DNA of 64,000 bases from a virus (IMGVR_UViG_3300028864_000017), one strand, 5' to 3'. Numbered from the stretch's first letter, positions 20,615-42,822 are shown. Translations and numbers: made by a program. The notes: generated from the sequence alone by a model not told the origin.

Positions 20615-20645
20615 AAAAAAGTTCAGAGAAATCTGAACTTTTTTT
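20613..20645. terminator. bidirectional intrinsic terminator
   Basis: A-tract gttcaga-GAAA-tctgaac T7. Confidence 0.85.
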
Positions 20646-20877
20646 ATATATTAAATTTTTTAGCAGTTAAAGCAGTTAATAAACCTTGTTCTTTAAGATA
20701 TTCAATTATTTTTTTTGATGTATCATATTTACTATTATTTGATATTTCAACATCACCATCACCGTATTCTACAGATTGAGTATATACGTTGTTATCAATA
20801 ATATTATATATTATACTCACTAATTCATCTATTTGTTTATCGAATTCAAATTCTTCATTAAATCTTTCTATTTTCAT
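20644..20877 (-). CDS. leader/KFNI-tail class protein
   Basis: MKIERFNEE ... AKKFNI*. Confidence 0.75.
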   Translation of the reverse strand: MKIERFNEEFEFDKQIDELVSIIYNIIDNNVYTQSVEYGDGDVEISNNSKYDTSKKIIEYLKEQGLLTALTAKKFNI

Positions 20878-21197
20878 AAGCTAAATTTATTTGTGTCTTT
20901 TTCTAATTTATATTTTTCTGTATCTCTCACAAAAAGATTAATATCATCATACTCATCTTTTTTAATAAATTTAGACGTTTTATAAAAATTACCTTTAATT
21001 GAAACAATAAGTTCATGATAATCTCTAAGTGAATCATAATAAAGATCATCAACTTTTAATACATCATATAATTTATATCTATTTCTAAAAATATCATTCA
21101 ATTTAATATATTCGCTAACCTTATAAAGTAATATTATACGCTGTTTTTTAAGATCATTTTCAAATTCTTTATATGTATCAAAATCTAATACTTTCAT
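20874..21197 (-). CDS. leader/KFNI-tail class protein (start moved to MKVLDF)
   Basis: MKVLDFDTYKEFEN ... TNKFSL*. Confidence 0.7.
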   Translation of the reverse strand: MKVLDFDTYKEFENDLKKQRIILLYKVSEYIKLNDIFRNRYKLYDVLKVDDLYYDSLRDYHELIVSIKGNFYKTSKFIKKDEYDDINLFVRDTEKYKLEKDTNKFSL

Positions 21198-21198
21198 A

Positions 21199-21585
21199 TT
21201 AAATATTAAATTTATTTGAATTTCTAATATGTTCCAAATCACCTAATACAACAGGATCATATTTCATATTTACAACATATTCTATAGCATTTTTAAAAAA
21301 TTCTTCTTTAAATTTTTTAATAAAAGGTTCAGGATTTTCCATATAGTAAATATCTCTTGTTTTATTACCCTCAAATACTACTGAATAATCATTTGATTCC
21401 TTACCTTCCACTTTAAATTTAATAACATATATAGGATAATTATATCTACTAACAGAAATGTCAGACCAATTTTCATTTAGAACTTCATCTACATTTTCAT
21501 TCCAATATATAACTGATGATTTTCTCTGAAAACTTTCATTTACATTAAAATTATCATTTATAAAATCTAAATATTTGTTTATCAT
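21199..21585 (-). CDS. leader/KFNI-tail class protein
   Basis: MINKYLDFINDNFNVNE ... SNKFNI*. Confidence 0.75.
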   Translation of the reverse strand: MINKYLDFINDNFNVNESFQRKSSVIYWNENVDEVLNENWSDISVSRYNYPIYVIKFKVEGKESNDYSVVFEGNKTRDIYYMENPEPFIKKFKEEFFKNAIEYVVNMKYDPVVLGDLEHIRNSNKFNI

Positions 21586-21640
21586 AAAATTTGAATATCA
21601 TTTTTTAATATATATAAAAAAATGATATTCAAATTTAATG
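21583..21640. promoter_or_regulatory. palindromic divergent promoter region spanning ATG to ATG
   Basis: 20-bp perfect arms aaatttgaatatcatttttt / aaaaaatgatattcaaattt around aatatatata. Confidence 0.75.
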
Positions 21641-22393
21641 GAAAAGAATAAAGAAGAAGAAGAATTCAAAATTCCTATTATAAAATCATCAAATGATTTA
21701 AATAAAATATTTGATGCAATATACGAACAAGGCTTTGGATATGTACAAAATCAAGATAATTTTCATAAGAGCAAAATTGAAAAAATCATTCAAAAATATA
21801 ATGTATTAAAAATAGATGTACCTAGTAGTTTTTATGCAGAATCATATAAAATAAAAAATTATGCAGAAGCAGAGAAAGAAATAAGTGCTCATTTTTCTAA
21901 ATTTAATCCTGATGATAAAATTAATGAATTTATAAAAAATAAATTCTCAATAAAATATGACGATAGATGTAAGCCACCTGAAGATAGAGGTGATAATTTA
22001 AGTACTGTAGTTGAATGGTTTAAATTTAAGACTAAATATAATCTCATAGATAAAGATTATAAATTAGGAGATAAATATTACATAAATGTTGATATTTATA
22101 ATTTAGATAAAAAATCATTGAAAATACATTTTGGAGATAATAACGATTTTAAATCATTATACAAATTAATATTCAATAAAGAATGTGCAGAGATCACTAA
22201 CAAATTAGGAGAATGGCAGAATCTTGGTGAAATAGAACTAAAATTTTTTCAAAATGGAACAGCTAGTATTAAAGGAAATTTGACTAAAATAAAAGAATAT
22301 TACTATAAAGATTTAATGAGTTCAGTTTTTTATAATAGTATTTATATCATATATTATAACAACAAAATTGAAAGAGTAAATCCAAAAAAATAA
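21638..22393 (+). CDS. hypothetical protein
   Basis: ORF track, 251 aa. Confidence 0.75.
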   Translation: MEKNKEEEEFKIPIIKSSNDLNKIFDAIYEQGFGYVQNQDNFHKSKIEKIIQKYNVLKIDVPSSFYAESYKIKNYAEAEKEISAHFSKFNPDDKINEFIKNKFSIKYDDRCKPPEDRGDNLSTVVEWFKFKTKYNLIDKDYKLGDKYYINVDIYNLDKKSLKIHFGDNNDFKSLYKLIFNKECAEITNKLGEWQNLGEIELKFFQNGTASIKGNLTKIKEYYYKDLMSSVFYNSIYIIYYNNKIERVNPKK

Positions 22394-22421
22394 AAAAATG
22401 TAGAGAAATCTACATTTTTTT
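22392..22421. terminator. bidirectional intrinsic terminator
   Basis: A7 tgtaga-GAAA-tctaca T7. Confidence 0.85.
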
Positions 22422-23540: not shown

Positions 23541-23544
23541 AAGT

Positions 23545-23573
23545 ATTATAATATTAAAAAGGTTTTAAGTTTT
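23545..23573 (-). promoter_or_regulatory. putative phage promoter AAAACT-N17-TATAAT
   Basis: exact 17-nt spacer upstream of 23540. Confidence 0.5.
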
Positions 23574-23580
23574 TATTTAT

Positions 23581-23590
23581 TTATATATAA
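23581..23590 (+). promoter_or_regulatory. putative late promoter TTATATATAA
   Basis: same box at 45331, 45359 and 56921, TATATATA at 26943, all upstream of structural or leader-class genes. Confidence 0.5.
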
Positions 23591-23607
23591 AGAAAAAACA
23601 GTCTATT

Positions 23608-23970
23608 ATGATTGATACAAGAAATGAAGATTTAGTAAAAAAATATTTTGATTTGGTTCAAGAAGAAATCAAAAGATTAATATCTCAAGATAAAGAGATA
23701 AAGAAAAGTGAAATACAAACATTCAATGATGAAATATTCAATCAATCTGATGAGATAAAAAGTGAAATAAGTAATTATATCAATCAAGCAACAATGAATG
23801 ATTTAGAGATTAGTAAAATAGCTAAAACTCTTTATGATAAGTTTAAAGTACAGACTAAGAATAATGTTTTCAATCAAACTGATACACAGAATGTACCTAA
23901 TACCTTAATGGGTGAGAATAAGCACATAAAAACATTTGAAAAATTTAATTATGATAACAAAAATAGATAA
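23608..23970 (+). CDS. hypothetical protein with the leader-like motif at its C-terminus
   Basis: LMGENKHIKTFEKFN near C-terminus; helical. Confidence 0.7.
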   Translation: MIDTRNEDLVKKYFDLVQEEIKRLISQDKEIKKSEIQTFNDEIFNQSDEIKSEISNYINQATMNDLEISKIAKTLYDKFKVQTKNNVFNQTDTQNVPNTLMGENKHIKTFEKFNYDNKNR

Positions 23971-24322
23971 TTATATATTAAATGAAGAGAATAAAAATAA
24001 TGAAAATTTAAAGTTAAAAATGACATTAGATGTATTTGATTTAGTTAAATTTATAGGTGGTAGTGACGATATAAACATAAACATTCCTTATCGTAAGCAT
24101 CATAATATAACTAAAATATATATAAAAAAATTTGAAGGTTTTGAACAAGATTTATTTGTAGAACTTACTACTATATTAGATAATTATACCTTTGATGTAG
24201 GATTTCTTAGTAATTTAAACATTAAAGAAATGACTAAAGTTTATAATTATTTAAAAAATAAATATCCTGATGAATACAATCAAATCATAGTCAAAAAAGA
24301 ATCAGAAAAATTCAACATATGA
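23951..24322 (+). CDS. leader/KFNI-tail class protein (start moved to MITKID)
   Basis: MITKIDNYILNE ... SEKFNI*. Confidence 0.75.
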   Translation: MITKIDNYILNEENKNNENLKLKMTLDVFDLVKFIGGSDDININIPYRKHHNITKIYIKKFEGFEQDLFVELTTILDNYTFDVGFLSNLNIKEMTKVYNYLKNKYPDEYNQIIVKKESEKFNI

Positions 24323-24627
24323 AATATCTTAAAAAATTTGAAAGTAATTATGATATTATAAATGTAAAGAAATATGTCTTATGGAAAATGAAACATTTTA
24401 TTTTTATATTAGAAGTTACTAAAATTTATGATAATTTAGTCCATATGAGAAGATTATATAAATATAGCGATGAATATGATAATATATCACCAACTGATAT
24501 AATGGAATTTGATTTTTCATATGAAGACATATCAAAGAAAGTTATATACAGTTCAGATAATCTTAATGACTGTTTAGATTTAAATTTATTAGCGGCATCA
24601 TTTATAACAGATAAATACAACATATGA
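24319..24627 (+). CDS. leader/KFNI-tail class protein
   Basis: MKYLKKFES ... TDKYNI*. Confidence 0.8.
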   Translation: MKYLKKFESNYDIINVKKYVLWKMKHFIFILEVTKIYDNLVHMRRLYKYSDEYDNISPTDIMEFDFSYEDISKKVIYSSDNLNDCLDLNLLAASFITDKYNI

Positions 24628-24920
24628 TAACAAATTTTAAAATATTTGAAGAAGTTAAAGAAAGATCATCTAATGATAGATCAACTATACAAGATAATGA
24701 TTATGTTATATTAGATCATCATTATTTTCATTATAAACTTCACGGAGATATTATAATAGGTAAAATTATTTCAAAAAATAAAAATACTTATTTATCTAAA
24801 TTTATAAAATTTGATGATGAATCATATAATGGTTACTATTCTGTAGACAAAATTTTATATTGGTCAGAAAGCAAAGAAGATATATTGGCGTATTTATCAG
24901 CAAAAAAATTTAACATATAA
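24624..24920 (+). CDS. leader/KFNI-tail class protein
   Basis: MITNFKIFEE ... AKKFNI*. Confidence 0.8.
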   Translation: MITNFKIFEEVKERSSNDRSTIQDNDYVILDHHYFHYKLHGDIIIGKIISKNKNTYLSKFIKFDDESYNGYYSVDKILYWSESKEDILAYLSAKKFNI

Positions 24921-24922
24921 TA

Positions 24923-25621
24923 ATGATTACAAATTTTAATAAATATTCACTAAATGAAACATATGAATTATCTGGTAAGCACTCATTTTTAACATACTTA
25001 CAGATTGTATCAAATCATGATTATCATTTCATTTCAAATGACACATATAGAAAATTATATAAATACCATGTATTTTTTTCAACTGAAACAATAACAGGAA
25101 TAGAAGATTATGTAGATATATTCAAATATAAACACTCTTTATCTTCAGCATATGAAATATTATTACAAATAAAGGATAATAAATTAGCTTTCTTTTTTGG
25201 AATAAAAGAAAATTCTACATTGAGATATGGATTCTTAGATTTAGATACTCAAAGGAGTTATGTTGTTGGTGAATTTATGTTTACTAAAGATTTTTTTGTT
25301 TCAATATCTAAATATAAATCAATGCAGTTTGTTAATAAGGTAATTCAAAATACAGATGCTAAAAAATTACCCATATTATCAAAGATAAAACAAGATTGTG
25401 AGAATTTTTATAAAGGAAAAAAGAAAACAAAAGTGGAAATATCAGACAATAAAGTAATTATTTATATCACAAGAGATCAATTCACAGATGATGATATAAA
25501 TATGAATCGTCCATTTAGATCATTAGATAATTGGGCATCTAAAAAAATGTGGAGAAACAAAGTTGAATGCAGTGTTGATGATGAAGGGGATCCAATAAAA
25601 TTTATACTAATTGTAAAATGA
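24923..25621 (+). CDS. leader-class protein (no KFNI tail)
   Basis: MITNFNKYSLNE. Confidence 0.75.
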   Translation: MITNFNKYSLNETYELSGKHSFLTYLQIVSNHDYHFISNDTYRKLYKYHVFFSTETITGIEDYVDIFKYKHSLSSAYEILLQIKDNKLAFFFGIKENSTLRYGFLDLDTQRSYVVGEFMFTKDFFVSISKYKSMQFVNKVIQNTDAKKLPILSKIKQDCENFYKGKKKTKVEISDNKVIIYITRDQFTDDDINMNRPFRSLDNWASKKMWRNKVECSVDDEGDPIKFILIVK

Positions 25622-25947
25622 AATACTTAAAGAAATTTGAGTCCAATAATGATTATGGTGAATATTGGTCAGTTATTTATGATCCTATTATTATTAGAAA
25701 ATCTTTGAAAAAAATTGGATGTCCTGATAAAACAATAGATAGTATTATTTATTTTTTCTCTGATTCTGATATTTTTGATAGTGTATTATATATTGTAATG
25801 GAAATAAAAAATGATAATGTATATTGGGACGCATCATTAAATGATGGTACATATAAATATTATAAATATAATGGTGATATTAAACTATCAAAGAAAGAAT
25901 TAGAAGAAGTAGAAATAGAAAAACACTCAAATAAATTTAATATATGA
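25618..25947 (+). CDS. leader/KFNI-tail class protein
   Basis: MKYLKKFES ... SNKFNI*. Confidence 0.8.
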   Translation: MKYLKKFESNNDYGEYWSVIYDPIIIRKSLKKIGCPDKTIDSIIYFFSDSDIFDSVLYIVMEIKNDNVYWDASLNDGTYKYYKYNGDIKLSKKELEEVEIEKHSNKFNI

Positions 25948-26264
25948 AATACTTGAAAAAATTTGAATATAATGAATATGAATATGAAATAGGTGATTAT
26001 GTTTTAGTCGATTTACCTCTAATAAAAGACTATTATTTTAATTATGCTACAAATGGAATTATTGATGATCATGCTATTATAATTGAGGTAAATGATGATA
26101 AAGATGATGATCATGAAGATCATTATATTAGAACATATAAATTATTATTTTATAATGATAAAGTACTTGATGAAGTTAGACCAATATTAATTACTAGAAA
26201 ATTAACAAATACAGAAGCAAAAGATTTAATTTTTAAAACTAATTTAAAAAAATTTAACATATGA
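25944..26264 (+). CDS. leader/KFNI-tail class protein
   Basis: MKYLKKFEY..EIGDYV ... LKKFNI*. Confidence 0.8.
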   Translation: MKYLKKFEYNEYEYEIGDYVLVDLPLIKDYYFNYATNGIIDDHAIIIEVNDDKDDDHEDHYIRTYKLLFYNDKVLDEVRPILITRKLTNTEAKDLIFKTNLKKFNI

Positions 26265-26890
26265 AATACTTAAAATATTTTGAAAATAATAATATTATAG
26301 AACAGCAACCTTTTTATATTAGTAATAACACATTATATATATCAGATGATATGGCAAAATTATTAACTCCTACATATAATGATCTAAAGAAAAGATATAA
26401 AAATAATCAAAATGCTATTGACTATCAATTTCAAAAAAATGTTGATTTCTTAAATAATGAAAAAGATGAAAATGGACGCAATAAAGTCAGAGAAGTATAT
26501 ACTAATATTACAGTTAGATGGAGAAATATGTATGCTATGAGTATAATCATTAAATATCGTGGAAGTGGAAATACTATAGATAATAAATTTGGAAAATTTA
26601 ATTATTATATTACTGGAAATTCAGGTGATAGTGAGATGCATGGAAAAAATATGAAAAGAGCAACAAGAGAATGTAATTATAATCTTATGATAAAATTATA
26701 TCCTATTGTTAAATATATTGATAATTTCATGAAAATTTTTGAATCTAAAGAAAAAGGATTTTTAGAAATAATTAAAGATTCATTAAATAAAGATATTATG
26801 TTAGCTAAATACGGGGTACCAAAGGAATTAAAAAAATATTTCAAAGGAGCAGAAGAAGCTATTATAAATTCGGATAAATATAATATATAA
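26261..26890 (+). CDS. leader/KFNI-tail class protein
   Basis: MKYLKYFEN ... SDKYNI*. Confidence 0.8.
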   Translation: MKYLKYFENNNIIEQQPFYISNNTLYISDDMAKLLTPTYNDLKKRYKNNQNAIDYQFQKNVDFLNNEKDENGRNKVREVYTNITVRWRNMYAMSIIIKYRGSGNTIDNKFGKFNYYITGNSGDSEMHGKNMKRATRECNYNLMIKLYPIVKYIDNFMKIFESKEKGFLEIIKDSLNKDIMLAKYGVPKELKKYFKGAEEAIINSDKYNI

Positions 26891-26972
26891 TATATATATC
26901 ATGATCTTGCATCATTTTATTTCTTATGAAATAGAGTTTTTTTATATATAGATAAAAATTAAATTATTAAAC

Positions 26973-29900
26973 ATGATAAATCAACAAAACAGTTTTGTGT
27001 CTTTAGCTGAACAACTAGCTGTATTAAATAAGAATTCAGTAGAAGTTATGACAAAATTAAATGATGTTGTAGCTAGTAGAAATTCTGTTGTAAACGTTAA
27101 CTTAATGAATACAGATGGAACAACATCATCATATCAATTTCCAACAGTTGGTCAATTAAAAAATGAATTAGATATTGCAAATAGAAATATTCAGAAATTA
27201 GCAGGATTATCTGATAGTACAGCTTATGTATCAGATGGTACAACTATGAGAAGAATATATGTAGATGATTTGAATAGTGAGCCTAGTCCTATTGATAGTT
27301 TAGATAGTATAAAAAAATTCACATCTATAAACAATTCTTTTTTTGAATCTCTTTATAATCCTATGTTAGCGATAGAACTTGATTTAACTGATAGAATTGA
27401 TCAAAAAGTAAAAAAGGTATTATCACGTAGATATATAATAAAATTTCAGACAGATCAATATGGTAATTTAACATCAGATGGTTCAAATTCAAAATCAGAT
27501 TTTGAAACTAAATTCTTAAATAGAAATGATGTTTTTATTGATGATTTGACTTCATGGTACACAAATATAAAAAATACTGGTGTTTTTCATAGTAATCAAC
27601 CTTATGATGAGCAAGTATTTGACTTAGATTATGATAAACTTCAATATTATGGAATATTTGATGTGGTTGGTATTGATAATGATACAATTAATAGTAAAAT
27701 GTGGTATGTATTAGGATCGATAACTTATTATGATTATACAGGTAACACTAGACAATTATCAGTAGGAGATGAATTAATAATAAATAAAAAAGATTCATCA
27801 ACATTATGGACAATAAAGGAAGTTAGTACAGCTAAAAGTAATTATAGAGTTATTTTAGAGAGGTTGGAAGGGTTAGAACCTGTTCCAATACTATCACAAG
27901 GATTGAAGATTTATAGTCCTGTATTACCAGAAAAAACAATAAAAATATCTATTGGTTATGATGAATACAATGTAGTTTTTATCAAACCTATTAATACAGA
28001 TTCAAATGTCATTTCATCAACATGGTCTTATGGTACATCTTTTTATAGTAACAATTTAGTTTTAGATACAAATAGTACTGTTTCTATGACAAAATTCTAT
28101 AGTGATACTGTATTTGATTATGGTTCTATATTAAAAGATTTAATATCTAAAAATATACCTAGTAAATTTGGAATAACACCAAATGTACCAACTTTAGTAT
28201 CTAGTAATTTTAAAGTTTTACAAATAAATACACATTTAACTGATACAGCGGATTCAGCAAAAATTCAAAATTTAAATACTCAAAAAGTATCTATAAAATC
28301 ACAATTAGAACAATTAAGTGATGCTATAGTTGAACAGAATAAAGAACTTAGTACTAAGCAATACAAATCAACATCAGATAAGCAGGCAAGTCAAAATCAA
28401 TTAAATACTTTGATAAGTCAGCAATCATCATTAACTAAATCATACACATCGATAGTTAGTCAAATTACTGCTGAGAATACTGGTTCAATTTCAAGTGTAA
28501 CTGCAAAATTTAGGGTAAGAGGTTTTTGGAGTATTCCAGAACCTATTATAATTAATACAGTAGGAGAACAACAAAAACAAGAAGTTGTTCAGTTTATTGT
28601 TCAATATAGATATAAGGCTACAGGAGGTTCTGAGCCTACAACAGAAGGATTTAATTTAAATCTTACAGAAACTATATACACAAATTCTACATCTACTGGA
28701 GATATTACTGATCAAACTAAAGCATATCTTAATCCAAGTATAACAACTCAAAATGTTACTGAAACTGGATATTTTTCCAATTGGAATCAATATATGACAG
28801 ATGCAAGGACAAGAACTTATAATAGAGCTTTAGATGTTTGGACATGGGATGTTGAAAATGTTTCTGATGCAAATTCACCTAAAGTTAATCAATTAGACAT
28901 ATCTTTACATCCAAATGAAACAGTTGAAATTAAAATTAAATCTATATCAGAAGTTGGATTTCCAGACTCACTTATAGTATCTGATTGGTCTGACGTTATG
29001 ACAATTGATTTTCCAACTGATCTTTCTCAAGTAGGTAACGAAAATTCTACTATTTTACAATCTGCTCAAAATGAACAAATATATTCACAAATAGAAAGTG
29101 ATTTTAATGCAAAAGGATTAACAACGCATCTTCAGCAATCATATTATGTTAATGATTTATATGTTGCTCATACTGATGTAAATGTAGGCACATCATTTAA
29201 AGATAGCTCAGGTAATATAATTATGTTAAATGATTATTTAAAATTATTAACAGATAAAATAACTGCTCTTGAAGAAATTGTATCTAATGCAAAAGGAGAA
29301 CTTTCAATTAGTTTATATAAGAATTCAACAAATGTTACAATAGAAAATGGTGCATCTATAATTCAAAATATTACATGTGAAGATTATGCAGAATTATCTG
29401 GTACAACAACAAGAACATATTACAATAATATATATTCTTCTGATGATTTCTACATACAATTTGGAAATGTTTCACAATCTGCACAATTAGGATTACTTTC
29501 ATATAGAAAATATGTACCTACTGTTAATGGTGATAATAGATTTTATAATACACAATATTCAAATGGATCATTAGCAACTTATATTGATTCAGAAGATATG
29601 CTTAGAACACAAGTAGATAATCAATTTATTTGGATTTCTGATGTATCAGGAACAAATGCAATATATAATTCAGGAAAAACATATAATTCTAATGGATTAG
29701 GACAAGTTTTGTACTCTAAAAATTGGAATGTTGGATTAACTGGAACTACAACACCAAATTCAGGAGGTACTTATTCAACTCCAATAAATATATTTAATGA
29801 TGTTAATTGGACTGGAGTTACTTGGAGTGCTGACAATGATTATCAAACTGATTTTCCTGTTACGATACATCCACATATTGATAATATTTCAGATTATGTT

Positions 29901-30155
29901 TATTCTGATAAAAGTGGAGTTAAATTGATAAATTCTAATAGCAAATTTACATTACCTATTAAATTTTTATTTAAATTATCAGGAGGAACAAGTGATTCAA
30001 TATCATTTCCTACAAATTTATCTACATCTCCATCAGTTACAAAAAAACTCAGAATCTTTATTGAATCTGAAAGCTTAAATAGACCATTTGAATTTGAAAT
30101 AGTGTTTAAGATATTTAGAAACAGAACATCATCAGTAAGAAGTATTGGATCTTAA
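26973..30155 (+). CDS. large putative virion structural protein (coiled coil + FN3-like segment)
   Basis: S/T/N-rich beta composition, central coiled coil, VEIKIKSISEVG..SDWS FN3-like strand; TATATATA upstream. Confidence 0.65.
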   Translation: MINQQNSFVSLAEQLAVLNKNSVEVMTKLNDVVASRNSVVNVNLMNTDGTTSSYQFPTVGQLKNELDIANRNIQKLAGLSDSTAYVSDGTTMRRIYVDDLNSEPSPIDSLDSIKKFTSINNSFFESLYNPMLAIELDLTDRIDQKVKKVLSRRYIIKFQTDQYGNLTSDGSNSKSDFETKFLNRNDVFIDDLTSWYTNIKNTGVFHSNQPYDEQVFDLDYDKLQYYGIFDVVGIDNDTINSKMWYVLGSITYYDYTGNTRQLSVGDELIINKKDSSTLWTIKEVSTAKSNYRVILERLEGLEPVPILSQGLKIYSPVLPEKTIKISIGYDEYNVVFIKPINTDSNVISSTWSYGTSFYSNNLVLDTNSTVSMTKFYSDTVFDYGSILKDLISKNIPSKFGITPNVPTLVSSNFKVLQINTHLTDTADSAKIQNLNTQKVSIKSQLEQLSDAIVEQNKELSTKQYKSTSDKQASQNQLNTLISQQSSLTKSYTSIVSQITAENTGSISSVTAKFRVRGFWSIPEPIIINTVGEQQKQEVVQFIVQYRYKATGGSEPTTEGFNLNLTETIYTNSTSTGDITDQTKAYLNPSITTQNVTETGYFSNWNQYMTDARTRTYNRALDVWTWDVENVSDANSPKVNQLDISLHPNETVEIKIKSISEVGFPDSLIVSDWSDVMTIDFPTDLSQVGNENSTILQSAQNEQIYSQIESDFNAKGLTTHLQQSYYVNDLYVAHTDVNVGTSFKDSSGNIIMLNDYLKLLTDKITALEEIVSNAKGELSISLYKNSTNVTIENGASIIQNITCEDYAELSGTTTRTYYNNIYSSDDFYIQFGNVSQSAQLGLLSYRKYVPTVNGDNRFYNTQYSNGSLATYIDSEDMLRTQVDNQFIWISDVSGTNAIYNSGKTYNSNGLGQVLYSKNWNVGLTGTTTPNSGGTYSTPINIFNDVNWTGVTWSADNDYQTDFPVTIHPHIDNISDYVYSDKSGVKLINSNSKFTLPIKFLFKLSGGTSDSISFPTNLSTSPSVTKKLRIFIESESLNRPFEFEIVFKIFRNRTSSVRSIGS

Positions 30156-33100: not shown

Positions 33101-33614
33101 CAATAATAAAAAACAAAAATATAATGTAACAGATCCTTTAGCAAGATCAATGTATCTAAATAATAATGAAACTATAATGAATACATCAAATGGAGTATCA
33201 TCAACGAATTCAATATATAGATATAACGGATCATACGAACCAATATTCAATAATGTGTCAATATTTAATAATGTATCTTTATATTTATCTGGTGATACTA
33301 TAAAATCATGGAATTCAAATTATAAATTTGATACAACATATGAAAATTTTGGAAGAATAGAAGAGTTGATGTATTCAAAAATAAATCCTATATCATCGCC
33401 ATTAAAATTGAAAAATACTGATACTGATTTATCAATTTACCCAATGGTGGATGAATTCGGTTATGAGTTCAGTTCAAGATTTATATTTAATTCATCTTGG
33501 GATAAAGATTTTTATGTTATTACTAATAGTGATCAAAATATGAATAATAATATATTTTCTAATTATTCTCATGTGGAATATATAATAGATCCTATAAAAA
33601 CTATAAATGATTAA
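30177..33614 (+). CDS. large putative virion structural protein
   Basis: 1145 aa, N/Y/S/T-rich, cotranscribed with 26973. Confidence 0.6.
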   Translation: MINNSFQLLRTNPALTTNIKLVVSSDYKLYLESFDTNTQLSNQKYKHYSVAKNKLYENQIVNYYDGLSSQLAFDVKYDSDVTNVFTKYNQQFDDIYWSGAKSVEDNWYNEDFEYLAPLFIRKENLPDGFIILRVDGAAPYENEDDDLGSSKLNKDNFHTQIVDKWKCVSVIDMRYNTDFGLFLYTNFTNNASFPERSFDLDFRQYEYSKFYGIDYNNGSYVNKSNFLQSILKYEQPHFKLEHEIIKSFENNNLIFPHILNLKFLFDDVPANPVNINNYSINRYYGFYADKLELVTNLTSYITPELKSGFTLKNNIFGYMSGDKFVESNESPFIEGFFLDKTYWIQLTNSDYDNEFYNVIRVNNNGKNTYRIVSDIDLSGYTFNVSNDRTCYINYTNGFNYNCKIINNPSGITNHISGYTSNFNIDPYYSGETTESMYGDLYLIQIDGIYHVLKNKNGAYFIQSDYAINSYSTGLEYWKGGKDSIYYTKKEIYKYGNKPIVYPVYRIKFSDIKDFDFNRVNSHFADFDYEKDTYTSTDEQKLYAVDYTDTSSLTKKNMTHSRGEDGQYQVMNVSSEYVSDDELYEISFNNLTEIWRKNPSVVKWGFAGSNSNCDYPYKLNNSINIGDTFNSTCNVFSLMPTEVEKNLDYFYRIGNFFSGTTDNIVKYLNQTTNIEVDFMEIYSKKFNLELYLNSDIDYFDYFFKNKSNFTIDDIDYVKQTLKYSTFQSGDNYTASNTLFKGLNINALNVSNVSRDINGRIINIVADNSKNFNNYKFSIILNDVYEYYVDGSYDSTYENGLSNNKVIDKTSNSIHVILNEKFKNFLIVINVKIPIQKKYVNINNVAIFGEKFGLYNSKTLDGHSLSYPATNVNDFDSSLIVASNIFDAFDDMNTLSEFDSGITYYYVNSIGQSGYTHPMNITGGTMKNVSDWTKNYPPFIFTFNDPKLLETNQNSYIKSSIKGPSVNIYDKYQIYYDNNKKQKYNVTDPLARSMYLNNNETIMNTSNGVSSTNSIYRYNGSYEPIFNNVSIFNNVSLYLSGDTIKSWNSNYKFDTTYENFGRIEELMYSKINPISSPLKLKNTDTDLSIYPMVDEFGYEFSSRFIFNSSWDKDFYVITNSDQNMNNNIFSNYSHVEYIIDPIKTIND

Positions 33615-33940
33615 TGAAAAATATTAAGCAATTCGAATCTTATCTATATGAATCTGAGAGTTATTGGCTTTTACCAACTGATGATAGATTTAAAAAATCT
33701 CTAATTCAAATAAAATGTGATAGAGACAAAATGAAAGAATTTTTGAATAATAGTAGAATACGAAATATGAAATATGTATTTATTTGTTATAAGCCATATT
33801 CACTTAACGAATGGGGTTGGAATCCATATAATGGTAAAATGACTAATGATTCATTTGAATCTGATAATTATCAATTTATGGGCACTGTAAATATAGATTT
33901 AAATGATGTAGAAATAGCAGTAAATAAATTTAACTTATAA
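33614..33940 (+). CDS. paralogue 1 of YWL(L/I/V)PTD family, leader/KFNL tail
   Basis: MKNIKQFE..YWLLPTDDRFKKSL..WGWN..VNKFNL*. Confidence 0.8.
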   Translation: MKNIKQFESYLYESESYWLLPTDDRFKKSLIQIKCDRDKMKEFLNNSRIRNMKYVFICYKPYSLNEWGWNPYNGKMTNDSFESDNYQFMGTVNIDLNDVEIAVNKFNL

Positions 33941-34281
33941 TGAAATATATTAAAAAATTTGAAAAATATAGTCAAAAAATGTATTGGCTAATACCAACAG
34001 ATAAAAGATTTAAAAAATCACTAAAACAATTGAATTTCTCTATTGAAAAAATAAAAGGTTTTTCAAATAGCAAAGAAATAAAAAAACATAATTATATATT
34101 TGTAGGTTATAATCCAAATCTAAATTCAAATAATAATAATAATATTGATGATTATAATTGGGGCTGGAATAGATACAGAGGTAAGCCAACTGAAGATTAT
34201 TATGAAGATAATAATTATAAATTTATGGGTAATATAAACATAGATGAATCTGAATTCGCCGCAAATAAATTTAACTTATAA
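33940..34281 (+). CDS. paralogue 2 of YWLxPTD family
   Basis: MKYIKKFE..YWLIPTDKRFKKSL..ANKFNL*. Confidence 0.8.
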   Translation: MKYIKKFEKYSQKMYWLIPTDKRFKKSLKQLNFSIEKIKGFSNSKEIKKHNYIFVGYNPNLNSNNNNNIDDYNWGWNRYRGKPTEDYYEDNNYKFMGNINIDESEFAANKFNL

Positions 34282-34616
34282 TGAAATATATTAAAAAATT
34301 CGAAAATAAAAGAAATTCTAAAAGGAAATATTGGTTACTTCCAACTGATGATAGATTTGTAAAATCATTAAAACAAATAAATTGTACAGATAGAAAAATA
34401 AGGGGATTTTTAGATAGTAGCAGCTTAAAAGAATGTAAATATATATTTGTTGGATATGACAATTCTAATAACAATTTTAATGTGGATGATAAATGGGGTT
34501 GGAATGAATATAAAAATAAATTGACTGATAATTATTATGAAGATAATAATTATAAATTTATGGGTATTGTAAATATAGATGATTCAGAATTAGCAGCAAA
34601 TAAATTTAATATATAA
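34281..34616 (+). CDS. paralogue 3 of YWLxPTD family
   Basis: MKYIKKFE..YWLLPTDDRFVKSL..ANKFNI*. Confidence 0.8.
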   Translation: MKYIKKFENKRNSKRKYWLLPTDDRFVKSLKQINCTDRKIRGFLDSSSLKECKYIFVGYDNSNNNFNVDDKWGWNEYKNKLTDNYYEDNNYKFMGIVNIDDSELAANKFNI

Positions 34617-34619: not shown

Positions 34620-34967
34620 ATGAAATATTTAAAATTCTTTGAAGATGATTTATATGATGATACAATATATTGGTTAGTTCCAACAGATAAAAGATTCAAA
34701 AATTCTCTAAAACAAATAAGTTGTCCTAAAGACAGAATTCAAAATTATGTTAAGTATGCATTGGAAAATGTATTAACAATAAAAGATTATAGAAGAAATT
34801 ATATGTATATTGTTTATCATCCAGAATATGAACCTCTTAAAAAATGGGGATATGAGTACTATGATGAAGGTATAAATGACAAATGGATGGATAAAAAAGG
34901 TTATAAATTCGGCGGTATAATAAACATAGATGAATCTGAGTTAGTTGCTAATAAATTCAACATATAA
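34620..34967 (+). CDS. paralogue 4 of YWLxPTD family
   Basis: MKYLKFFE..YWLVPTDKRFKNSL..ANKFNI*. Confidence 0.8.
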   Translation: MKYLKFFEDDLYDDTIYWLVPTDKRFKNSLKQISCPKDRIQNYVKYALENVLTIKDYRRNYMYIVYHPEYEPLKKWGYEYYDEGINDKWMDKKGYKFGGIINIDESELVANKFNI

Positions 34968-34983
34968 AAAAAATTAAAAAATA

Positions 34984-35744: not shown

Positions 35745-35766
35745 AAAATAAAATAAAGTAATAACT

Positions 35767-36464: not shown

Positions 36465-36636
36465 ATTAGCATATAAAATATTCCTTGATGAATTTTATGC
36501 TAAATTTGATTTCAAATCAAAAATTTATGGGGATTATAATTTTTTTTTAAAAAATAAAAAAAGTTATAAAAAATATTATATAAAAGCAAATTCTATCATA
36601 AGAAAAGAAAAATTAAAGGCACTAAATGAAATTTAA
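36451..36636 (+). CDS. hypothetical protein, RxxKL tail
   Basis: IRKEKLKAL. Confidence 0.65.
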   Translation: MKIDELAYKIFLDEFYAKFDFKSKIYGDYNFFLKNKKSYKKYYIKANSIIRKEKLKALNEI

Positions 36637-38182: not shown

Positions 38183-38208
38183 ACTTTATTTAAAAAATTA
38201 TATATATA
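38180..38208 (+). promoter_or_regulatory. putative phage promoter TAAACT-N17-TATATA
   Basis: exact 17-nt spacer. Confidence 0.5.
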
Positions 38209-38257
38209 TTACTTATGAAAATTAATTTACATTCTCCGCCAATCATCATCATTAACG

Positions 38258-38479
38258 ATGATGAAAACAATATCTAAAACTCGACTTTGGAGAGTCGAAA
38301 TCGTAAACCGTAATGGTTACGAAGCTCCATCAATATTGATTGAAGCTAAATTAACTGAAGTACACAAAGATGTACAAAAATTAAACTTAAGATTATTAGA
38401 TTTTCCTAACAAATGGAGTTATCATTTGATTGATCTTGAAAAAAGATTTGATGACAGAAAGGGTAAATGGGTAGATTAA
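38258..38479 (+). CDS. small hypothetical protein with structured 5' mRNA
   Basis: 73 aa; own promoter and terminator; hairpins at 38243-38322. Confidence 0.65.
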   Translation: MMKTISKTRLWRVEIVNRNGYEAPSILIEAKLTEVHKDVQKLNLRLLDFPNKWSYHLIDLEKRFDDRKGKWVD

Positions 38480-38482
38480 AAT

Positions 38483-38512
38483 AAAAAAGACTGTCAATTG
38501 ACAGTCTTTTTT
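38483..38512. terminator. bidirectional intrinsic terminator
   Basis: A6 gactgtc-aatt-gacagtc T6. Confidence 0.85.
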
Positions 38513-38936
38513 ATATATTGAATTTATCAGATGATTTTTTTATTAGGAAGTTATCATAATTTTCTTTTGTTAATTTTTCAATACAATTTGGAATATCTTT
38601 TTCTGTTATATCAAAATAAATATAATTAAGATTAATATCGACATCAAAAATTTCATAAATAAAATCAACAAGATTTTCATTCTCATTTAAATTTGCATGA
38701 TACACATTAATTTTAATAAACTGTAAATTCATAGTTCTCATTTTATATGAATCAATAGTCAATAATCTAAGATTATTGAAATTATTATTTATTGATATAA
38801 ATCTTCCGTTTTTTTCATAATAACATTTTAAATTATAATCAATTGAATTAATAAAATTAACTAATGATTCTGCTAATTTAATAGTAGGACTTGTTTTTTT
38901 ACTAAAAAAATCTAAAAAACTTTCATACATCATCAT
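38511..38936 (-). CDS. leader/KFNI-tail class protein (paralogue of 38939-39352)
   Basis: MMMYESFL..IEKLTKENYDNF..SDKFNI*. Confidence 0.8.
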   Translation of the reverse strand: MMMYESFLDFFSKKTSPTIKLAESLVNFINSIDYNLKCYYEKNGRFISINNNFNNLRLLTIDSYKMRTMNLQFIKINVYHANLNENENLVDFIYEIFDVDINLNYIYFDITEKDIPNCIEKLTKENYDNFLIKKSSDKFNI

Positions 38937-38938
38937 AA

Positions 38939-39352
38939 TTATAAATTAAATTTATTTGCAGTATATTTAATGGAAAAATCATCAAAATTTTCTTTTGTTA
39001 ATTTTTTTATTACATATTTAATATCATCAATTGATACAGTAATATCTAAAATCGTCATATAATCTTTATTAAAAAGATGTAACAAAAATTCAATCACATG
39101 ACCACCTAGTATTGAATAATTCTGATTATAATGAAAATCACAATTGATATTATAGTATGATTTGTGATCACCTTTAACTATTTTAAATACAAATTTGTTC
39201 GAATTTGCATATATCCAAACATCATCATCAAATTTTTTATAACTCCAATTACATTCAGGCTTAACTATATTTAAAAAAATTATAATAGCATCAGCGAATT
39301 TAACTTCAATTGGATTAAATATTGTTTTTAAAAAACTCTCATACATCATCAT
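38939..39352 (-). CDS. leader/KFNL-tail class protein
   Basis: MMMYESFL..IKKLTKENFDDF..ANKFNL*. Confidence 0.8.
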   Translation of the reverse strand: MMMYESFLKTIFNPIEVKFADAIIIFLNIVKPECNWSYKKFDDDVWIYANSNKFVFKIVKGDHKSYYNINCDFHYNQNYSILGGHVIEFLLHLFNKDYMTILDITVSIDDIKYVIKKLTKENFDDFSIKYTANKFNL

Positions 39353-39355
39353 AAT

Positions 39356-40174
39356 TTATAAATTGAATTTTGCCATATCATCGTCCAAATTAAAAACATT
39401 AGTTATCTTACAATAGTATATAGAAGTAAATTTAATTCCTACTATTTCTTTATGCTCTTTTACTTTTGCTGTCATATATACAACATCATTTTTTCTAAGA
39501 GTTCTGCCAATATTATAAGCTATATATCTATTACCATCATCATCTATTAGTTTGCAGGTATATTGTGTTCCAAATGCGCTCTGAGTTGTATTAAAATTAT
39601 AAACAGTTGCTTTTATTTCAATTTTTTTACCAACTTCTCCTATATATTTACTTGTACTTTCTTCTTGGTTTTTCTTTGTCAATGTTTCAAAAAATAATTT
39701 TTTATATTCTTGAATTTCTTTTGCCATATCAGCATTTCCATTAAAATCTTTAGATAACCAAACAACATATTGAGGATCTTCTACAAATACTTCTCCAATT
39801 GTTTGCCCTCTATGTTTTCCAAATGTTAAGATTTTATTTTTTTCTGCTTGAAAAAGTCCAGCATATGTTCCAAATCTATCAATTATTACTTGAATCCTAC
39901 CTGAAGCTTTAGCTGCTTTTTTAACTGCAGTCATAAAGTCAGTACTTAGATTACAAATATAATAACAAGATGCAGATTTTGGATTCCATCTCCAAAATGT
40001 ATAATATACTGAGTATTTACCAGATACATCTATATAAAAACAACCAACATCTTTCATTGAATCTGGATCTTTTCCTTCTGCTAATATTTTTTCAGCTTCT
40101 TCAATTTCTTCATCACTTGGTTGAATGAGTTTAGACATTTTAGCTTCTTTGATGTATTGTAAATAATTTTTCAT
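39356..40174 (-). CDS. leader/KFNL-tail protein with FGKH (DUF3820-like) motif and C-terminal OB-like domain
   Basis: MKNYLQYIKEA; LTFGKHRGQTIGEV..DPQYVVWL; YIGEVGKKIEIKATV; MAKFNL*. Confidence 0.7.
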   Translation of the reverse strand: MKNYLQYIKEAKMSKLIQPSDEEIEEAEKILAEGKDPDSMKDVGCFYIDVSGKYSVYYTFWRWNPKSASCYYICNLSTDFMTAVKKAAKASGRIQVIIDRFGTYAGLFQAEKNKILTFGKHRGQTIGEVFVEDPQYVVWLSKDFNGNADMAKEIQEYKKLFFETLTKKNQEESTSKYIGEVGKKIEIKATVYNFNTTQSAFGTQYTCKLIDDDGNRYIAYNIGRTLRKNDVVYMTAKVKEHKEIVGIKFTSIYYCKITNVFNLDDDMAKFNL

Positions 40175-40178
40175 GTTT

Positions 40179-40949
40179 TTATAAATTAAATTTATTTAAA
40201 TTAAATTCTTTTTCAATATGAGTAATATTCTCTATATTATCATTATGTTCTTTCTGTTTTGATAATAATTTTTCCAATTCTTGATATTTATCAAATCCGA
40301 ATAATTTAGCGTTTTCAATTTCTTTTTTCTGATCAGAATTTAATATTATTCTATTTTTACTAATTATTTTAATTTCACGTAGACTTCCACTACTATATAT
40401 TGATATGTTATATTTATCATTAAGGTTATGTGTATCTATTATGTCATTAATTATGTTTGTTTCTTTTTCTTCTTCTATTTTTTCACTATTATTAAAACTT
40501 CTTGTTCTGAATCTAATGTAATAATATGACTTAAATTTTTCATCATTAACTTCTCTAGAAATTATATCAGACATGTGATTTCCTATTTTGGAAAAATATT
40601 TACCATTTTTCTCGTAAATAATAAATCTATTATAACCTAATTTTCCTGAATTGCAGTCATCATATATATCAATATAATCATTATTAATTATCATATTAAA
40701 CATTTTATGTAATTGAACAGTTACTGTATCTATTATAGGAATAAAGAATGATTCAGATAAATTTGAAAATCCAAAAAATGGCATTTCACATTTCACATTT
40801 AGTTCATTTTCAATATCAGTTTTAAAAATATTAAATATATTATAATCTTCAAAGTGATATGTTATCATTTTTAAATTCGAAAAAAACTCTCTAATATCAG
40901 TTATTTTTTTATTCATATAATTTTCATTGTGATGTTTGATATATTTCAT
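40179..40949 (-). CDS. leader/KFNL-tail class protein
   Basis: MKYIKHHNEN ... LNKFNL*. Confidence 0.75.
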   Translation of the reverse strand: MKYIKHHNENYMNKKITDIREFFSNLKMITYHFEDYNIFNIFKTDIENELNVKCEMPFFGFSNLSESFFIPIIDTVTVQLHKMFNMIINNDYIDIYDDCNSGKLGYNRFIIYEKNGKYFSKIGNHMSDIISREVNDEKFKSYYYIRFRTRSFNNSEKIEEEKETNIINDIIDTHNLNDKYNISIYSSGSLREIKIISKNRIILNSDQKKEIENAKLFGFDKYQELEKLLSKQKEHNDNIENITHIEKEFNLNKFNL

Positions 40950-40985
40950 AATAAGAGAACGATAATATGTTTTTATTAAACATCA

Positions 40986-40993
40986 CAAAGGTA
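40986..40993 (-). promoter_or_regulatory. Bacteroidota-type -7 element TACCTTTG
   Basis: TAnnTTTG about 36 nt upstream of 40949. Confidence 0.55.
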
Positions 40994-41094
40994 CTAAAAT
41001 CTTTGATATTTAATCTTATATATTAAAAAAAAATAAACAAAAAAAAATAATATTAATACAATTTATTAATAACAAAAAAAAAATTCGATATTAT

Positions 41095-41580
41095 ATGATT
41101 ATTACACTAACAATTGATGATATTTTTAGACGTTGCTTATGGTCAGACTACAAGCGATTTGTTCTTAAAGATAAAAATGAGCAAGAAATACAAGCAATTG
41201 TAAAAGAAAATAAACCAATTGTCATTTCAGAGAATGATGCATATGCAATAGGACTTCTTAAAACAATAGAAACAGATAATTTAGTACATAGATTTACTGT
41301 ACATATGAAAGATATGATAAGTATAAAATCAAATATATTTGATAAAAATGTTTATTTATCAGTTAGAATAGTAGAAAATGAATTAGAAAGTTTTAAGAAA
41401 AGATTTCCTGATTATTGGGATTCAGATCCAGTATATACTGAATCAATAGTAGATTTGAATAATTTCATTTGTAATTTGCAACAGCAGATTAAAACATTTG
41501 AAGCTTATGAATTTAAAATTAAAGATAAAAAAATTCGATATTATTTATCTAAAGATATTAAAAAAATGATTGAAAATTAA
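41095..41580 (+). CDS. hypothetical protein
   Basis: ORF track, 161 aa. Confidence 0.75.
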   Translation: MIITLTIDDIFRRCLWSDYKRFVLKDKNEQEIQAIVKENKPIVISENDAYAIGLLKTIETDNLVHRFTVHMKDMISIKSNIFDKNVYLSVRIVENELESFKKRFPDYWDSDPVYTESIVDLNNFICNLQQQIKTFEAYEFKIKDKKIRYYLSKDIKKMIEN

Positions 41581-41584
41581 AATG

Positions 41585-41613
41585 AAAAGAACCTTAATTA
41601 AGGTTCTTTTTTT
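41585..41613. terminator. bidirectional intrinsic terminator
   Basis: aaaagaacctt-aatt-aaggttctttt + T tract. Confidence 0.85.
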
Positions 41614-42472
41614 ATTTTCCTTTCCATACTAATTTATATTCATATGTTCCTGGTAGCATTATAATTTCTCTTTGATTAGTATGATAGTATTTCTTTGGTA
41701 ACATCTGTACATCAACTAAAATGTCATCTGGTGAAGTAGTCATAACTGCAACAAATGGAGGTGTTGATGGTTCATCATCAATAAATCTAATAGCTGTTAA
41801 TATGTTAGTAGTCCAAGAAGTTGGATAATTAAAAAATGATTTTATTGTTTGTCCTTTTTTATAAGGAGAATCTACTTCTGATGAATGTACAATTTGAACT
41901 TCTTCTAATCCTTTATATATTTTTATTGATTCAGTTGGTCTAAATTGTTTCAATTCATCTATAATATTTTGTGTCAATTTTGGTAATCTTAATGATCCTG
42001 ATATATATAAGTATAACCATCTATCAGTTTCTTCTGAATATTTTATTTTTAATCTTGATGTCTTATTTTTATCATACATTACAAATCCTCCTACAAGTTT
42101 GAAACTTACTACATCATTAACATCTTCTATATAAATTTGCCAATCATTCATATAATTCTTTAAAAAATATCCAGAATAACCAGAATGTTCATCTTTAATG
42201 TCCTTCTTATCACTAAAAATATCTTCATCATCTATCATATCAATAAGTCTTTTCTTTTTGTATATTGGCTTATTTAATTTAATTTGATAAATATATTCAC
42301 TACCTGTATCTGAAGCATCTGCTCTATTATATGGAAATATTAAAGCTTTACTAAAATTTTTTTTAGTCAAAGGTTTATCAGAGTATGCATATAAAAAACC
42401 GTCATATTCATCTATTTCATCAAAATCAGTTTCTTTATAATCTACTATTTCATATTTCTTAATATATTTCAT
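41612..42472 (-). CDS. putative R-S-E clade ADP-ribosyltransferase with capsid-targeting-like leader
   Basis: MKYIKKYE leader; C-terminal IYKG ... PTSWTT ... NQREIIMLPG (YRG / STS / QxE equivalents). Confidence 0.65.
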   Translation of the reverse strand: MKYIKKYEIVDYKETDFDEIDEYDGFLYAYSDKPLTKKNFSKALIFPYNRADASDTGSEYIYQIKLNKPIYKKKRLIDMIDDEDIFSDKKDIKDEHSGYSGYFLKNYMNDWQIYIEDVNDVVSFKLVGGFVMYDKNKTSRLKIKYSEETDRWLYLYISGSLRLPKLTQNIIDELKQFRPTESIKIYKGLEEVQIVHSSEVDSPYKKGQTIKSFFNYPTSWTTNILTAIRFIDDEPSTPPFVAVMTTSPDDILVDVQMLPKKYYHTNQREIIMLPGTYEYKLVWKGK

Positions 42473-42822
42473 ATGTTAAACTTATTTGTCTCTTTTTCTA
42501 ATTTGAATTGTTTTATATCTTGTTTTGTGACTTCAATTTCTCCTTGATACTCAAATCTACCTCGTTCTATATTACCTTTAACATATTCATCATAAATACA
42601 CCATTTAAAGTTATTAAAATTTCTATTTGGATCATATGTTATATAAATTTTATTATTCTTTTTTTTGTATGTGTACATTGAAAATGTTTCATCATCTTTA
42701 ATGTTTTTATAACAATTTAATGCATCAATTTTTTTCATACTTATTTCAAAATATGGCTCACGTACATTAACTACCCAATATTTTTTTTCATTAATACCTT
42801 CAAAAAATTTTATGTATTTCAT
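42469..42822 (-). CDS. leader/KFNI-tail class protein (start moved to MKYIKFFE)
   Basis: MKYIKFFEG ... TNKFNI*. Confidence 0.75.
   Translation of the reverse strand: MKYIKFFEGINEKKYWVVNVREPYFEISMKKIDALNCYKNIKDDETFSMYTYKKKNNKIYITYDPNRNFNNFKWCIYDEYVKGNIERGRFEYQGEIEVTKQDIKQFKLEKETNKFNI

Follow-up and report, generated by a model that had tools for sequence, protein, structure and literature searches.

Shared N-terminal leaders and C-terminal tails on unrelated small proteins of a Mahaphage-like huge phage, a candidate two-ended address code

In bacteriophage T4, internal proteins carry a capsid-targeting sequence (CTS), MKTYQEFIAE, that is cleaved once, and ∼1000 internal protein molecules remain in the head (PMC8442874). 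The internal proteins of T4 are highly basic (PMC8442874), and those of T-even phages are "highly diverse", sharing only a conserved CTS (PMC3012670). Giant phages such as phiKZ and SPN3US have heads with dozens of proteins (about 50 in SPN3US, including a 20-member paralog family), and members of some paralog families begin with identical sequences, which a gp21-related protease processes after Glu (PMC5694885). Here we analyze 64,000 nt of the viral sequence IMGVR_UViG_3300028864_000017 (the window, meaning this whole stretch), in which many small proteins share an N-terminal leader, a C-terminal tail, or both, around unrelated cores. We consider it probable that these ends are modular tags that act as peptides, are read in trans, and mark a hyper-expanded set of non-early genes.

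Recounting confirms both shared ends, which a preliminary description had reported for about 22 open reading frames (ORFs), 18 of them with the tail. In the window, K[FY][NS][IL] lies flush with the stop codon in 18 ORFs, all within 20644-42828 and on both strands (KFNI in 10, KFNL in 5, KYNI in 2, and KFSL in 1). The 4-mer occurs internally 14 times in 19,637 positions, a rate that predicts 0.06 occurrences at the 88 C-termini (binomial p = 5e-39). A start of the form M(GM)?K[YHN][IL]K.[FY]E is found in 11 of the 88 ORFs and internally once in 19,285 positions. Ten of these strict leaders read MKY[LI]K.[FY]E, including those of ORFs 10464, 41612, and, after MG, 42469 (ORFs are named by their lower coordinate); the eleventh is MKNIKQFE at 33614. 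Looser leaders, for example MITNFKIFE, MKIERFNEE, ...ILNE, and MMMYESFL, begin ORFs 20644, 20874, 21199, 23951, 24624, 24923, 38511, 38939, 39356, 40179, and 3545. The union of strict and loose leaders and tails is 22 ORFs, with only the leader in 3545, 10464, 24923, and 41612. In a position-by-position logo of 77 tagged proteins, the information content of the leader is limited to residues 1-8, and Glu is its most conserved residue after Met (55 of 64 anchored copies). The tail first described as K(F/Y)N(I/L) is real but longer than four residues: the logo reveals a conserved C-terminal element of ∼15 residues, hydrophobic-x-[ED]-hydrophobic-E-hydrophobic-x3-[AST]-[NK]-K-[FY]-N-[LI], with an acidic, amphipathic pattern that begins at about -15. 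No precedent for the tail as a sequence motif was found, nor anything on these tags in the papers searched.

Constraint at the tail falls on the peptide rather than on the DNA, as had been proposed, because synonymous codons vary there at or above background. The synonymous mix at every tag codon is at least as varied as the genome average. In the window, tail Ile and Leu are encoded by ATA, ATT, and TTA, Asn by AAC in 8 of 17 cases (47% vs. 11% in the background), and TTC is used in 4 of 15 (27% vs. 16%); in a relative (contig L005), tail Leu is encoded by five different codons. Stops after the tail are TAA and TGA, joined by TAG in L005. The ends could in principle be a DNA- or RNA-level by-product without peptide function, either crossover points at which cassettes are shuffled, as with the PeSL elements of T4, or a translation-coupling context of abutting genes. 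At many junctions the genes overlap by ATGA or TAATG and 30-40 nt are nearly identical, and array gene content differs among close relatives, both of which would fit such an origin. However, tag codons do not show the DNA identity in excess of the peptide's needs that a PeSL-like recombination boundary would have, and the tail is always flush with the stop codon irrespective of the distance to the next start. It is also present on the operon-last genes 20644(-) and 38511(-), which have no downstream gene and face a convergent gene and terminator. The tags are furthermore kept among phages that share only about 80-90% identity in their putative virion proteins, with a KYNL variant in L005. A by-product of this kind is therefore highly improbable, although recombination at similar junctions may help the arrays expand. 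The translation-coupling and pure DNA-repeat readings of the tags are rejected on the codon evidence and on the presence of the tail in operon-last genes.

Rare C-ending codons (AAC, TTC, TAC) are enriched 2-4 fold at the invariant Asn and aromatic positions of the tail in the window, in L005, and in a second relative, L007. This enrichment is consistent with selection for accurate translation of those residues.

The window is part of a Mahaphage-like huge phage of Bacteroidota. Its 1060-aa (amino acid) protein (26973-30155) has matches of 35.5-37% identity in "uncultured phage" genomes of 634-735 kb (LR745206, LR756501-504), with weaker relatives in LR756500 (462 kb), Sphingomonas phage PAU, Lak phages, and jumbo phages of Tenacibaculum and Flavobacterium. 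Genomes of 634, 636, 642, and 735 kb are Mahaphage genomes with predicted hosts in the Bacteroidetes (Al-Shayeb et al. 2020; PMC7162821). Putative virion genes of the window encode products of 1060, 1145, and 829 aa, a collagen-like fiber, and a BspA-type leucine-rich repeat (LRR) protein; alongside them are genes for DNA metabolism (thymidylate synthase, a UvsW-like helicase, and topoisomerase II).

Tags of the same form are abundant among close relatives. A protein search with the 111-aa ORF 34281-34616, a member of the YWLxPTD (YWL) family, retrieved 15 metagenomic homologs, all 15 with leader and tail; the invariant columns of the family are M1, K2, K5, E8, K108, and N110, and no YWL relatives were found in the GenBank phage set. 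In 20 kb of the 286-kb contig L005, ∼48 of 51 consecutive genes have the leader at the start and KYNL at the end, and L007, which is syntenic with the window, has the same tags. The closest relative, a 330-kb IMG/VR contig that CheckV estimates as 46% complete (G001), has the tail in 100 of 560 ORFs, and a 96-kb contig (G015) in 15 of 137. A degenerate DNA pattern of the tail/leader junction matched at least 117 stretches on about 40 contigs in IMG/VR.

Leader and tail differ in phylogenetic depth. The pattern N-K-F-N-x-stop has 0-2 matches in the complete genomes LR756500, -501, -502, and -504, versus 47 in G001. These tail-less relatives nevertheless have leaders: ∼25 proteins of LR756500 start with MKYIKEYEEF[IL]xE, and the larger genomes have MIKKYGQFLNE, MKHLKKFNLFE, and similar starts. 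Because these four complete genomes carry leaders with 0-2 matches to the tail pattern, the leader is clade-wide and older, and the tail is an addition in one sub-lineage. LR756500 also contains leader-bearing paralogs (L041-L064; for example 11706-15077, 180972-181730, 197835-199531, and 313382-313912) with a different C-terminal motif, DFG[FM][FL]DN or DDFG[FL][IL], a hint that C-terminal motifs arose more than once alongside the leader.

Tagged genes turn over rapidly. Between the window and G001, untagged neighbors are mostly 84-99% identical, whereas tagged genes often reach only 48-58% or lack an ortholog, and the YWL family varies in copy number (four in the window, three in G001, and two in L007). 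By analogy, this turnover matches the behavior of arms-race loci such as the T-even internal-protein locus. We looked for a recurring untagged partner gene within the arrays and found none.

The cores between the tags are unrelated, as the preliminary description had held. Without their tags, the 77 proteins form 61 BLAST clusters. Among 97 tagged proteins of G001, Pfam recognized ankyrin repeats in 11, LRRs in 2, and ExoX-like_C in 1; Pfam and PHROGs found nothing on the tagged proteins of the window apart from ExoX-like_C on 39356-40174. AlphaFold2 with a family alignment predicts a confident alpha/beta core for the YWLxPTD family (34281-34616; predicted local distance difference test [pLDDT] above 90), for which a fold search gave no database match. 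The AlphaFold2 model of the GDYV family, whose 32 members were collected by motif and alignment, is an SH3/Tudor-like barrel with a C-terminal helix; fold matches to this model were weak and of Tudor/chromo/KOW type only (E above 0.1), and jackhmmer with the GDYV core alone retrieved only the ortholog. A search of the ESM Atlas for 24923-25621 gave no usable match.

Predicted structures place the tags outside these cores. Leader residues 1-10/11 have pLDDT below 50 in both the YWLxPTD and GDYV models. The final F-N-I is likewise below 50 in the YWLxPTD model and lies beyond the last helix in the GDYV model, where the final block has a mean pLDDT of 64. The most conserved residues are thus the least structured, which argues for linear motifs read by another molecule and against ends kept for the fold. 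Complex prediction for leader-tail pairing in trans, between window proteins with unrelated cores (A1 and A3), scored 0.00 and speaks neither for nor against it.

These data bear on the possibility that the tagged proteins are one hyper-diverged paralog family whose ends serve closure of their own fold or head-to-tail or homo-oligomer contacts, rather than acting as addresses. There is local paralogy in tandem arrays (the four YWL genes, a MMMYESF pair, and the 32 GDYV genes), and the conserved C-terminal element is a ∼15-residue helix rather than four residues. The two ends also co-occur in about 87-89% of cases; in G001, the leader is present in 87 of 100 tail-bearing ORFs, and the tail in 56 of the 63 ORFs with a strict leader. 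However, the cores include ankyrin, LRR, Tudor-like barrel, and alpha/beta folds and therefore cannot be one family, and neither AlphaFold2 model shows a confident contact of the leader or the terminal F-N-I with the core or between the two ends. The ∼25 proteins of LR756500 and several of the window have a leader without the tail, so neither end requires the other; 3545 and 24923, two such window proteins, are not paralogs. We regard a single family as improbable.

Tagged genes share a promoter class with genes for the head. Two promoter-like classes occur at fixed spacing in intergenic regions: P1, a Bacteroidota -7 box (TAnnTTTG, usually TATCTTTG) 25-45 nt before the start codon, and P2, in which TATATATA[AG] follows a T-run, 22-36 nt ahead of the start codon. 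Operons of G001 contain 54 tagged and 58 untagged genes behind P2 and 3 tagged and 115 untagged genes behind P1 (Fisher p = 2e-17; 43 tagged genes have no class and are left out). In G001, P2 also heads operons that hold putative virion genes of 1144, 1059, and 830 aa. In LR756500, the same kind of motif, ATATATAA, precedes both the capsid gene and the protease-scaffold gene at -25 to -30, and in G015 a TATATA motif of the P2 type precedes the protease gene. The class is reminiscent of the T4 late promoter TATAAATA. The preliminary description had taken early expression only as an outcome that would speak against loading into the head; as far as motifs indicate, tagged genes instead group by promoter with the capsid and protease genes and are nearly absent from the host-type class, which is presumably early. 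Because TAnnTTTG is the Bacteroidota sigma-A -7 consensus, P1 also provides independent support for a Bacteroidota host.

Promoter-like sites of both classes occur in the window. A P2-like site (T-run and TATATATAAA; 23582..23591, +) precedes the plus-strand tagged array 23608-26890, 24-26 nt from its first gene, and P2 TATATATA (26943..26950, +) lies 30 nt before the 1060-aa putative virion gene, in an operon that includes the four YWL genes. Another P2 (45332..45339, -) is 31 nt before the 829-aa putative virion gene, and its operon runs into 42469-42828 and 41612-42472. A palindromic P2 (21609..21616) separates the divergent 21585(-) and 21638(+), and a further site of the P2 class is at 56917-56951. 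Upstream of 40949, a P1 box (TACCTTTG, matching TAnnTTTG; 40986..40993, -) lies at 44 nt, with a P2-like AATATATAAG farther upstream. P1 boxes precede many operons of untagged genes, in the window at 6200-6448, 14704-14804, and 16760-16976, and throughout G001.

Head genes of the lineage are of T4 type, as seen in relatives. Searches of the window and G001 for capsid, portal, terminase, and protease genes found none; no protease was found in contigs G001-G010 and no capsid protein in four of those contigs, and a capsid-profile scan of IMG/VR returned only Mahaphages of ∼30% GC. A Peptidase_S77 (gp21) domain is present in four of four complete relatives searched. The tail-bearing contig G015 has a T4-type portal (Portal_T4, E = 1e-62) and the start of a capsid gene, by which the shell protein of the tail-bearing lineage is known as a 126-residue fragment. 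It also encodes a 781-aa protein with an N-terminal protease domain (Peptidase_S80 at 26.8 bits, cut-off 23.4; S77 at 22.3 bits, below its cut-off). Inside this head-assembly module is a tagged gene of 102 aa (MKVNRFNE...KYNL; L275, 13065-13370) with its own TATATA promoter, located between the portal region and the protease-scaffold gene, directly upstream of the latter. In Sphingomonas phage PAU, gp270 (L010, 33136-34179), which alone in its region is annotated as "internal capsid protein", starts with MKGLHNLYEAKLNEA, which is leader-like and ends in LNE.

The T4 CTS, which is found on the internal proteins IPI-III and on Alt, remains the closest match to the leader, and the earlier comparison of the two stands. 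They agree in position, length, MK start, an aromatic residue, and terminal Glu. The closest leaders in relatives are MKYILEYEEFLLE, MIKKYGQFLNE, and, in G001, MKTYQQFNE (vs. MKTYQEFIAE of T4); Y-Q-E-F-I-A-E of the CTS also aligns with Y-E-E-F-I-L-E of the LR756500 leader. As in T4, a short N-terminal peptide is common to otherwise unrelated, fast-evolving small proteins encoded at hypervariable loci, tagged genes appear from promoter motifs to share a class with head genes, and the lineage encodes a portal of T4 type together with a gp21/gp175-like prohead protease. The systems differ in that the leader here has eight residues and mostly lacks the (I/L)xE cleavage site, carriers number at least 100 rather than about five and are acidic rather than basic, and a second, C-terminal tag occurs only here. 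In phiKZ and SPN3US, propeptides are mostly >100 residues, families are true paralogs, and a common C-terminal motif is absent; no sequence relation was found between their head families and the tagged proteins.

A mechanism can be proposed in which leader and tail are short sorting peptides recognized by something else, the tail standing at the end of an acidic C-terminal helix, on a large and rapidly replaced set of unrelated small proteins. In this scheme the leader reads M-K-x-[IL]-K-x-[FY]-E and the tail [AST]-[NK]-K-[FY]-N-[ILV]-COOH. The tagged proteins would be made together with virion proteins and not with early genes behind host-type promoters. The leader would dock on the scaffold or core of the assembling prohead, as the CTS does in T4, and a prohead protease of the T4/phiKZ type may then cut it off behind the conserved Glu. 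The tail, specific to the sub-lineage, would act as a second signal of a new kind, either docking on the shell, portal, or core or setting the order of exit. Together with the phage DNA, this cargo of ankyrin, LRR, Tudor-like, and numerous orphan domains would reach the next host. Of the destinations considered, the prohead is the likeliest; that the tagged proteins go there, by way of a CTS-like leader and a second signal in the tail, seems to us possible, if somewhat short of an even chance. We propose only tentatively the complete scheme, in which a two-ended address code sends between one and two hundred structurally unrelated small proteins of each genome into the virion, to be delivered to the next host. 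The two-signal head loading first suggested is partly supported by the modular peptide tags, the CTS-like leader, the T4-type head genes of the lineage, and the promoter class; the acidic carriers, and a tail on ∼18% of genes in G001, speak against a simple analogy to T4.

Several observations weigh against this scheme. Tagged proteins are acidic, with a median isoelectric point (pI) of 5.3 versus 6.8 for other small proteins (p = 6e-6) and a pI below 6 in 64 of 100, and thus are not basic in the manner of T4. Some 18% of G001 genes carry the tail, and to our knowledge at least 100 cargo species per particle would be without precedent. Position P3 relative to the leader Glu is usually Lys, so that most window leaders lack the T4 (I/L)xE site; some window copies (ILNE, SLNE, TLNE) and relatives (EF[IL]xE) do end in [IL]xE. 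Capsid, portal, and protease genes are all absent from the window itself, and a partner of the tail was sought but not found. The timing of tagged genes is read from promoter motifs, in a comparison that sets aside the 43 genes without a class, and P2 also drives topoisomerase II and a homing endonuclease, so it is best read as "not host-type early" and not as strictly late. Finally, the array from 40949 to 38511 is the one tagged array of the window with a host-type -7 box (at -44).

Some of the same observations favor a different destination, in which the tags are address labels for a reader outside the virion, such as a protease or unfoldase of host or phage, a chaperone, a compartment built by the phage, or an export route. 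A protease or unfoldase could read the tags as timed degrons, or as a tether by which the variable domains become substrate adaptors. The tail has the hydrophobic-x-hydrophobic-COOH form of PDZ-type ligands; it is like class II PDZ ligands and MuA-type ClpX C-terminal signals, with a basic residue upstream of the hydrophobic end. The leader, Met-basic-hydrophobic-hydrophobic, resembles a class of N-terminal ClpX signals. Ankyrin and LRR cores commonly serve to recruit substrates, the proteins are acidic, unlike T4 internal proteins, their termini are flexible in models, and a huge number of tagged species is easier to accommodate in the cytoplasm than in a capsid. However, PDZ and S41 proteins would be the obvious readers of such an end, and no phage-encoded PDZ_2 or Peptidase_S41 gene was found in five tail-bearing contigs (about 1.2 Mb), a negative that applies to phage readers only. 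A reader of this kind also leaves unexplained the avoidance of early promoters, the class shared with capsid genes, the likeness of the leader to the T4 CTS, and the tagged gene inside the head module. We judge a reader outside the virion to be rather unlikely.

Conceptual counterparts of the tail exist, and the preliminary statement that none is known was too strong. Encapsulin cargo-loading peptides and the C-termini of scaffold proteins are C-terminal peptides that dock on HK97-fold shells. The encapsulin cargo-loading peptide is the nearest concept, being a flexible C-terminal peptide on unrelated cargo, as is the tail; on its own it suffices to bring such cargo inside an HK97-fold shell. 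It differs in consensus and in lacking an N-terminal partner signal, and binding of K[FY]N[IL]-COOH to a shell is putative. In the Legionella Dot/Icm E-block tail and in poxvirus Ank-PRANC/F-box proteins, variable protein-binding repeats are combined with a constant C-terminal signal. The layout is shared, with an acidic stretch ∼10-15 residues from the end and hydrophobic residues at the very end; machinery and hosts differ, and the resemblance is one of layout only. No homology to Dot/Icm or poxvirus ankyrin/LRR effectors was detected.

Huge-phage genes are for the most part small and without a known function. In this phage and its close relatives, about a fifth of genes share one label, and their purpose can therefore be approached through a single reader. 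If the label means loading into the particle, these phages would carry a very large, fast-changing set of host-directed proteins, including ankyrin, LRR, and Tudor-like binders, and both peptides would be portable packaging tags for foreign proteins, as the T4 CTS already is. A two-ended virion code would far exceed any known virus-encoded cargo-tagging system in size and would include the first dedicated C-terminal packaging or ejection signal. If the label instead means degradation, a compartment, or export, it would point to an undescribed sorting system in phage-infected Bacteroidota. Under either reading, the tags are a simple sequence marker of this phage lineage in metagenomes.

The tagged ORFs of the window lie mostly in arrays. 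On the minus strand, 21199..21585 (128 aa, long leader ending ...NVNE, tail NKFNI) heads an array that continues with 20874..21197 (107 aa, leader MKVLDFDTYKEFE, variant tail NKFSL), which lacks an ortholog in the 330-kb relative, and ends with 20644..20877 (77 aa, MKIERFNEE, KKFNI), the last gene before a convergent terminator. The plus-strand array includes 23951..24322 (123 aa, leader MITKIDNYILNEE, tail EKFNI), 24319..24627 (102 aa, MKYLKKFE, DKYNI), which has an ATGA overlap with both neighbors, and 24624..24920 (98 aa, MITNFKIFEE, KKFNI). It continues with 24923..25621 (232 aa), which has the leader only (MITNFNKYSLNE) and 95% identity in relatives, 25618..25947 (109 aa, MKYLKKFE, NKFNI), and 25944..26264 (106 aa, MKYLKKFE, KKFNI), a GDYV member with the predicted SH3/Tudor-like barrel and C-terminal helix. 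The last gene, 26261..26890 (209 aa, MKYLKYFE, DKYNI), immediately precedes the 1060-aa putative virion gene. At the other end of this array, the untagged first gene, 23608-23970, overlaps 23951-24322, and its end, ...NKHIKTFEKFNYDNKNR, contains a leader-like KHIKTFE followed by KFN in a frame that differs from that of the next gene's own start. Such an end could be the remnant of an older junction or of a tagged gene that underwent a frameshift.

Several tagged genes lie within operons of large putative virion genes. The four YWL paralogs, all on the plus strand, follow the 1145-aa gene and are coupled to it by overlapping stop and start codons: 33614..33940 (108 aa, MKNIKQFE, NKFNL), whose start overlaps the stop of that gene, 33940..34281 (113 aa, MKYIKKFE, NKFNL), 34281..34616 (111 aa), which has the AlphaFold2-modeled alpha/beta core, and 34620..34967 (115 aa, MKYLKFFE, NKFNI). 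On the minus strand, 42469..42828 (119 aa, MKYIKFFE after MG, tail NKFNI) is directly downstream of the 829-aa gene and has a more distant BLAST link to YWL-type proteins; its true start is probably 42822. It is followed by 41612..42472 (286 aa), which has the leader MKYIKKYE and no tail. Also on the minus strand, 40179..40949 (256 aa, MKYIKHHNE, NKFNL) heads an array with 39356..40174 (272 aa, MKNYLQYIKE, AKFNL), which combines the ExoX-like_C motif with a beta-rich C-terminal domain, and the paralogs 38939..39352 (137 aa, tail NKFNL) and 38511..38936 (141 aa, MMMYESFLDF, DKFNI), the latter being the last gene before a convergent terminator. Outside the block, on the plus strand, 3545..4249 (234 aa) has a leader-like ...EFTLNE start and 10464..10787 (107 aa) the leader MKYLKFFE, both without the tail.

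Other features of the window concern its termination signals and untagged genes. Its GC content is 22% over the full length; no tRNA genes were found in it, and an Rfam scan gave no match. Perfect bidirectional hairpin terminators (A-run, stem, T-run) occur at three convergent junctions: 20615-20643, after the last tagged gene of its array, 38480-38510, after the tagged gene 38511-38936, and 41581-41611. A triple terminator between convergent genes (4623-4727) consists of three tandem ∼35-nt units, each with a GTCAGTC...GACTGAC hairpin and a T-run. Upstream of the 829-aa putative virion gene, 565 nt (45309-45873) have no ORF of at least 50 codons, are negative in Rfam, and contain several TATATA motifs. 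Tandem paralog arrays also occur among untagged genes, with four genes of ∼70-90 aa that have ...KKY[FL]CKKS[LV]... in common at 1549-2511 and four minus-strand genes of ∼150 aa with KLKK-type tails at 11592-13457.

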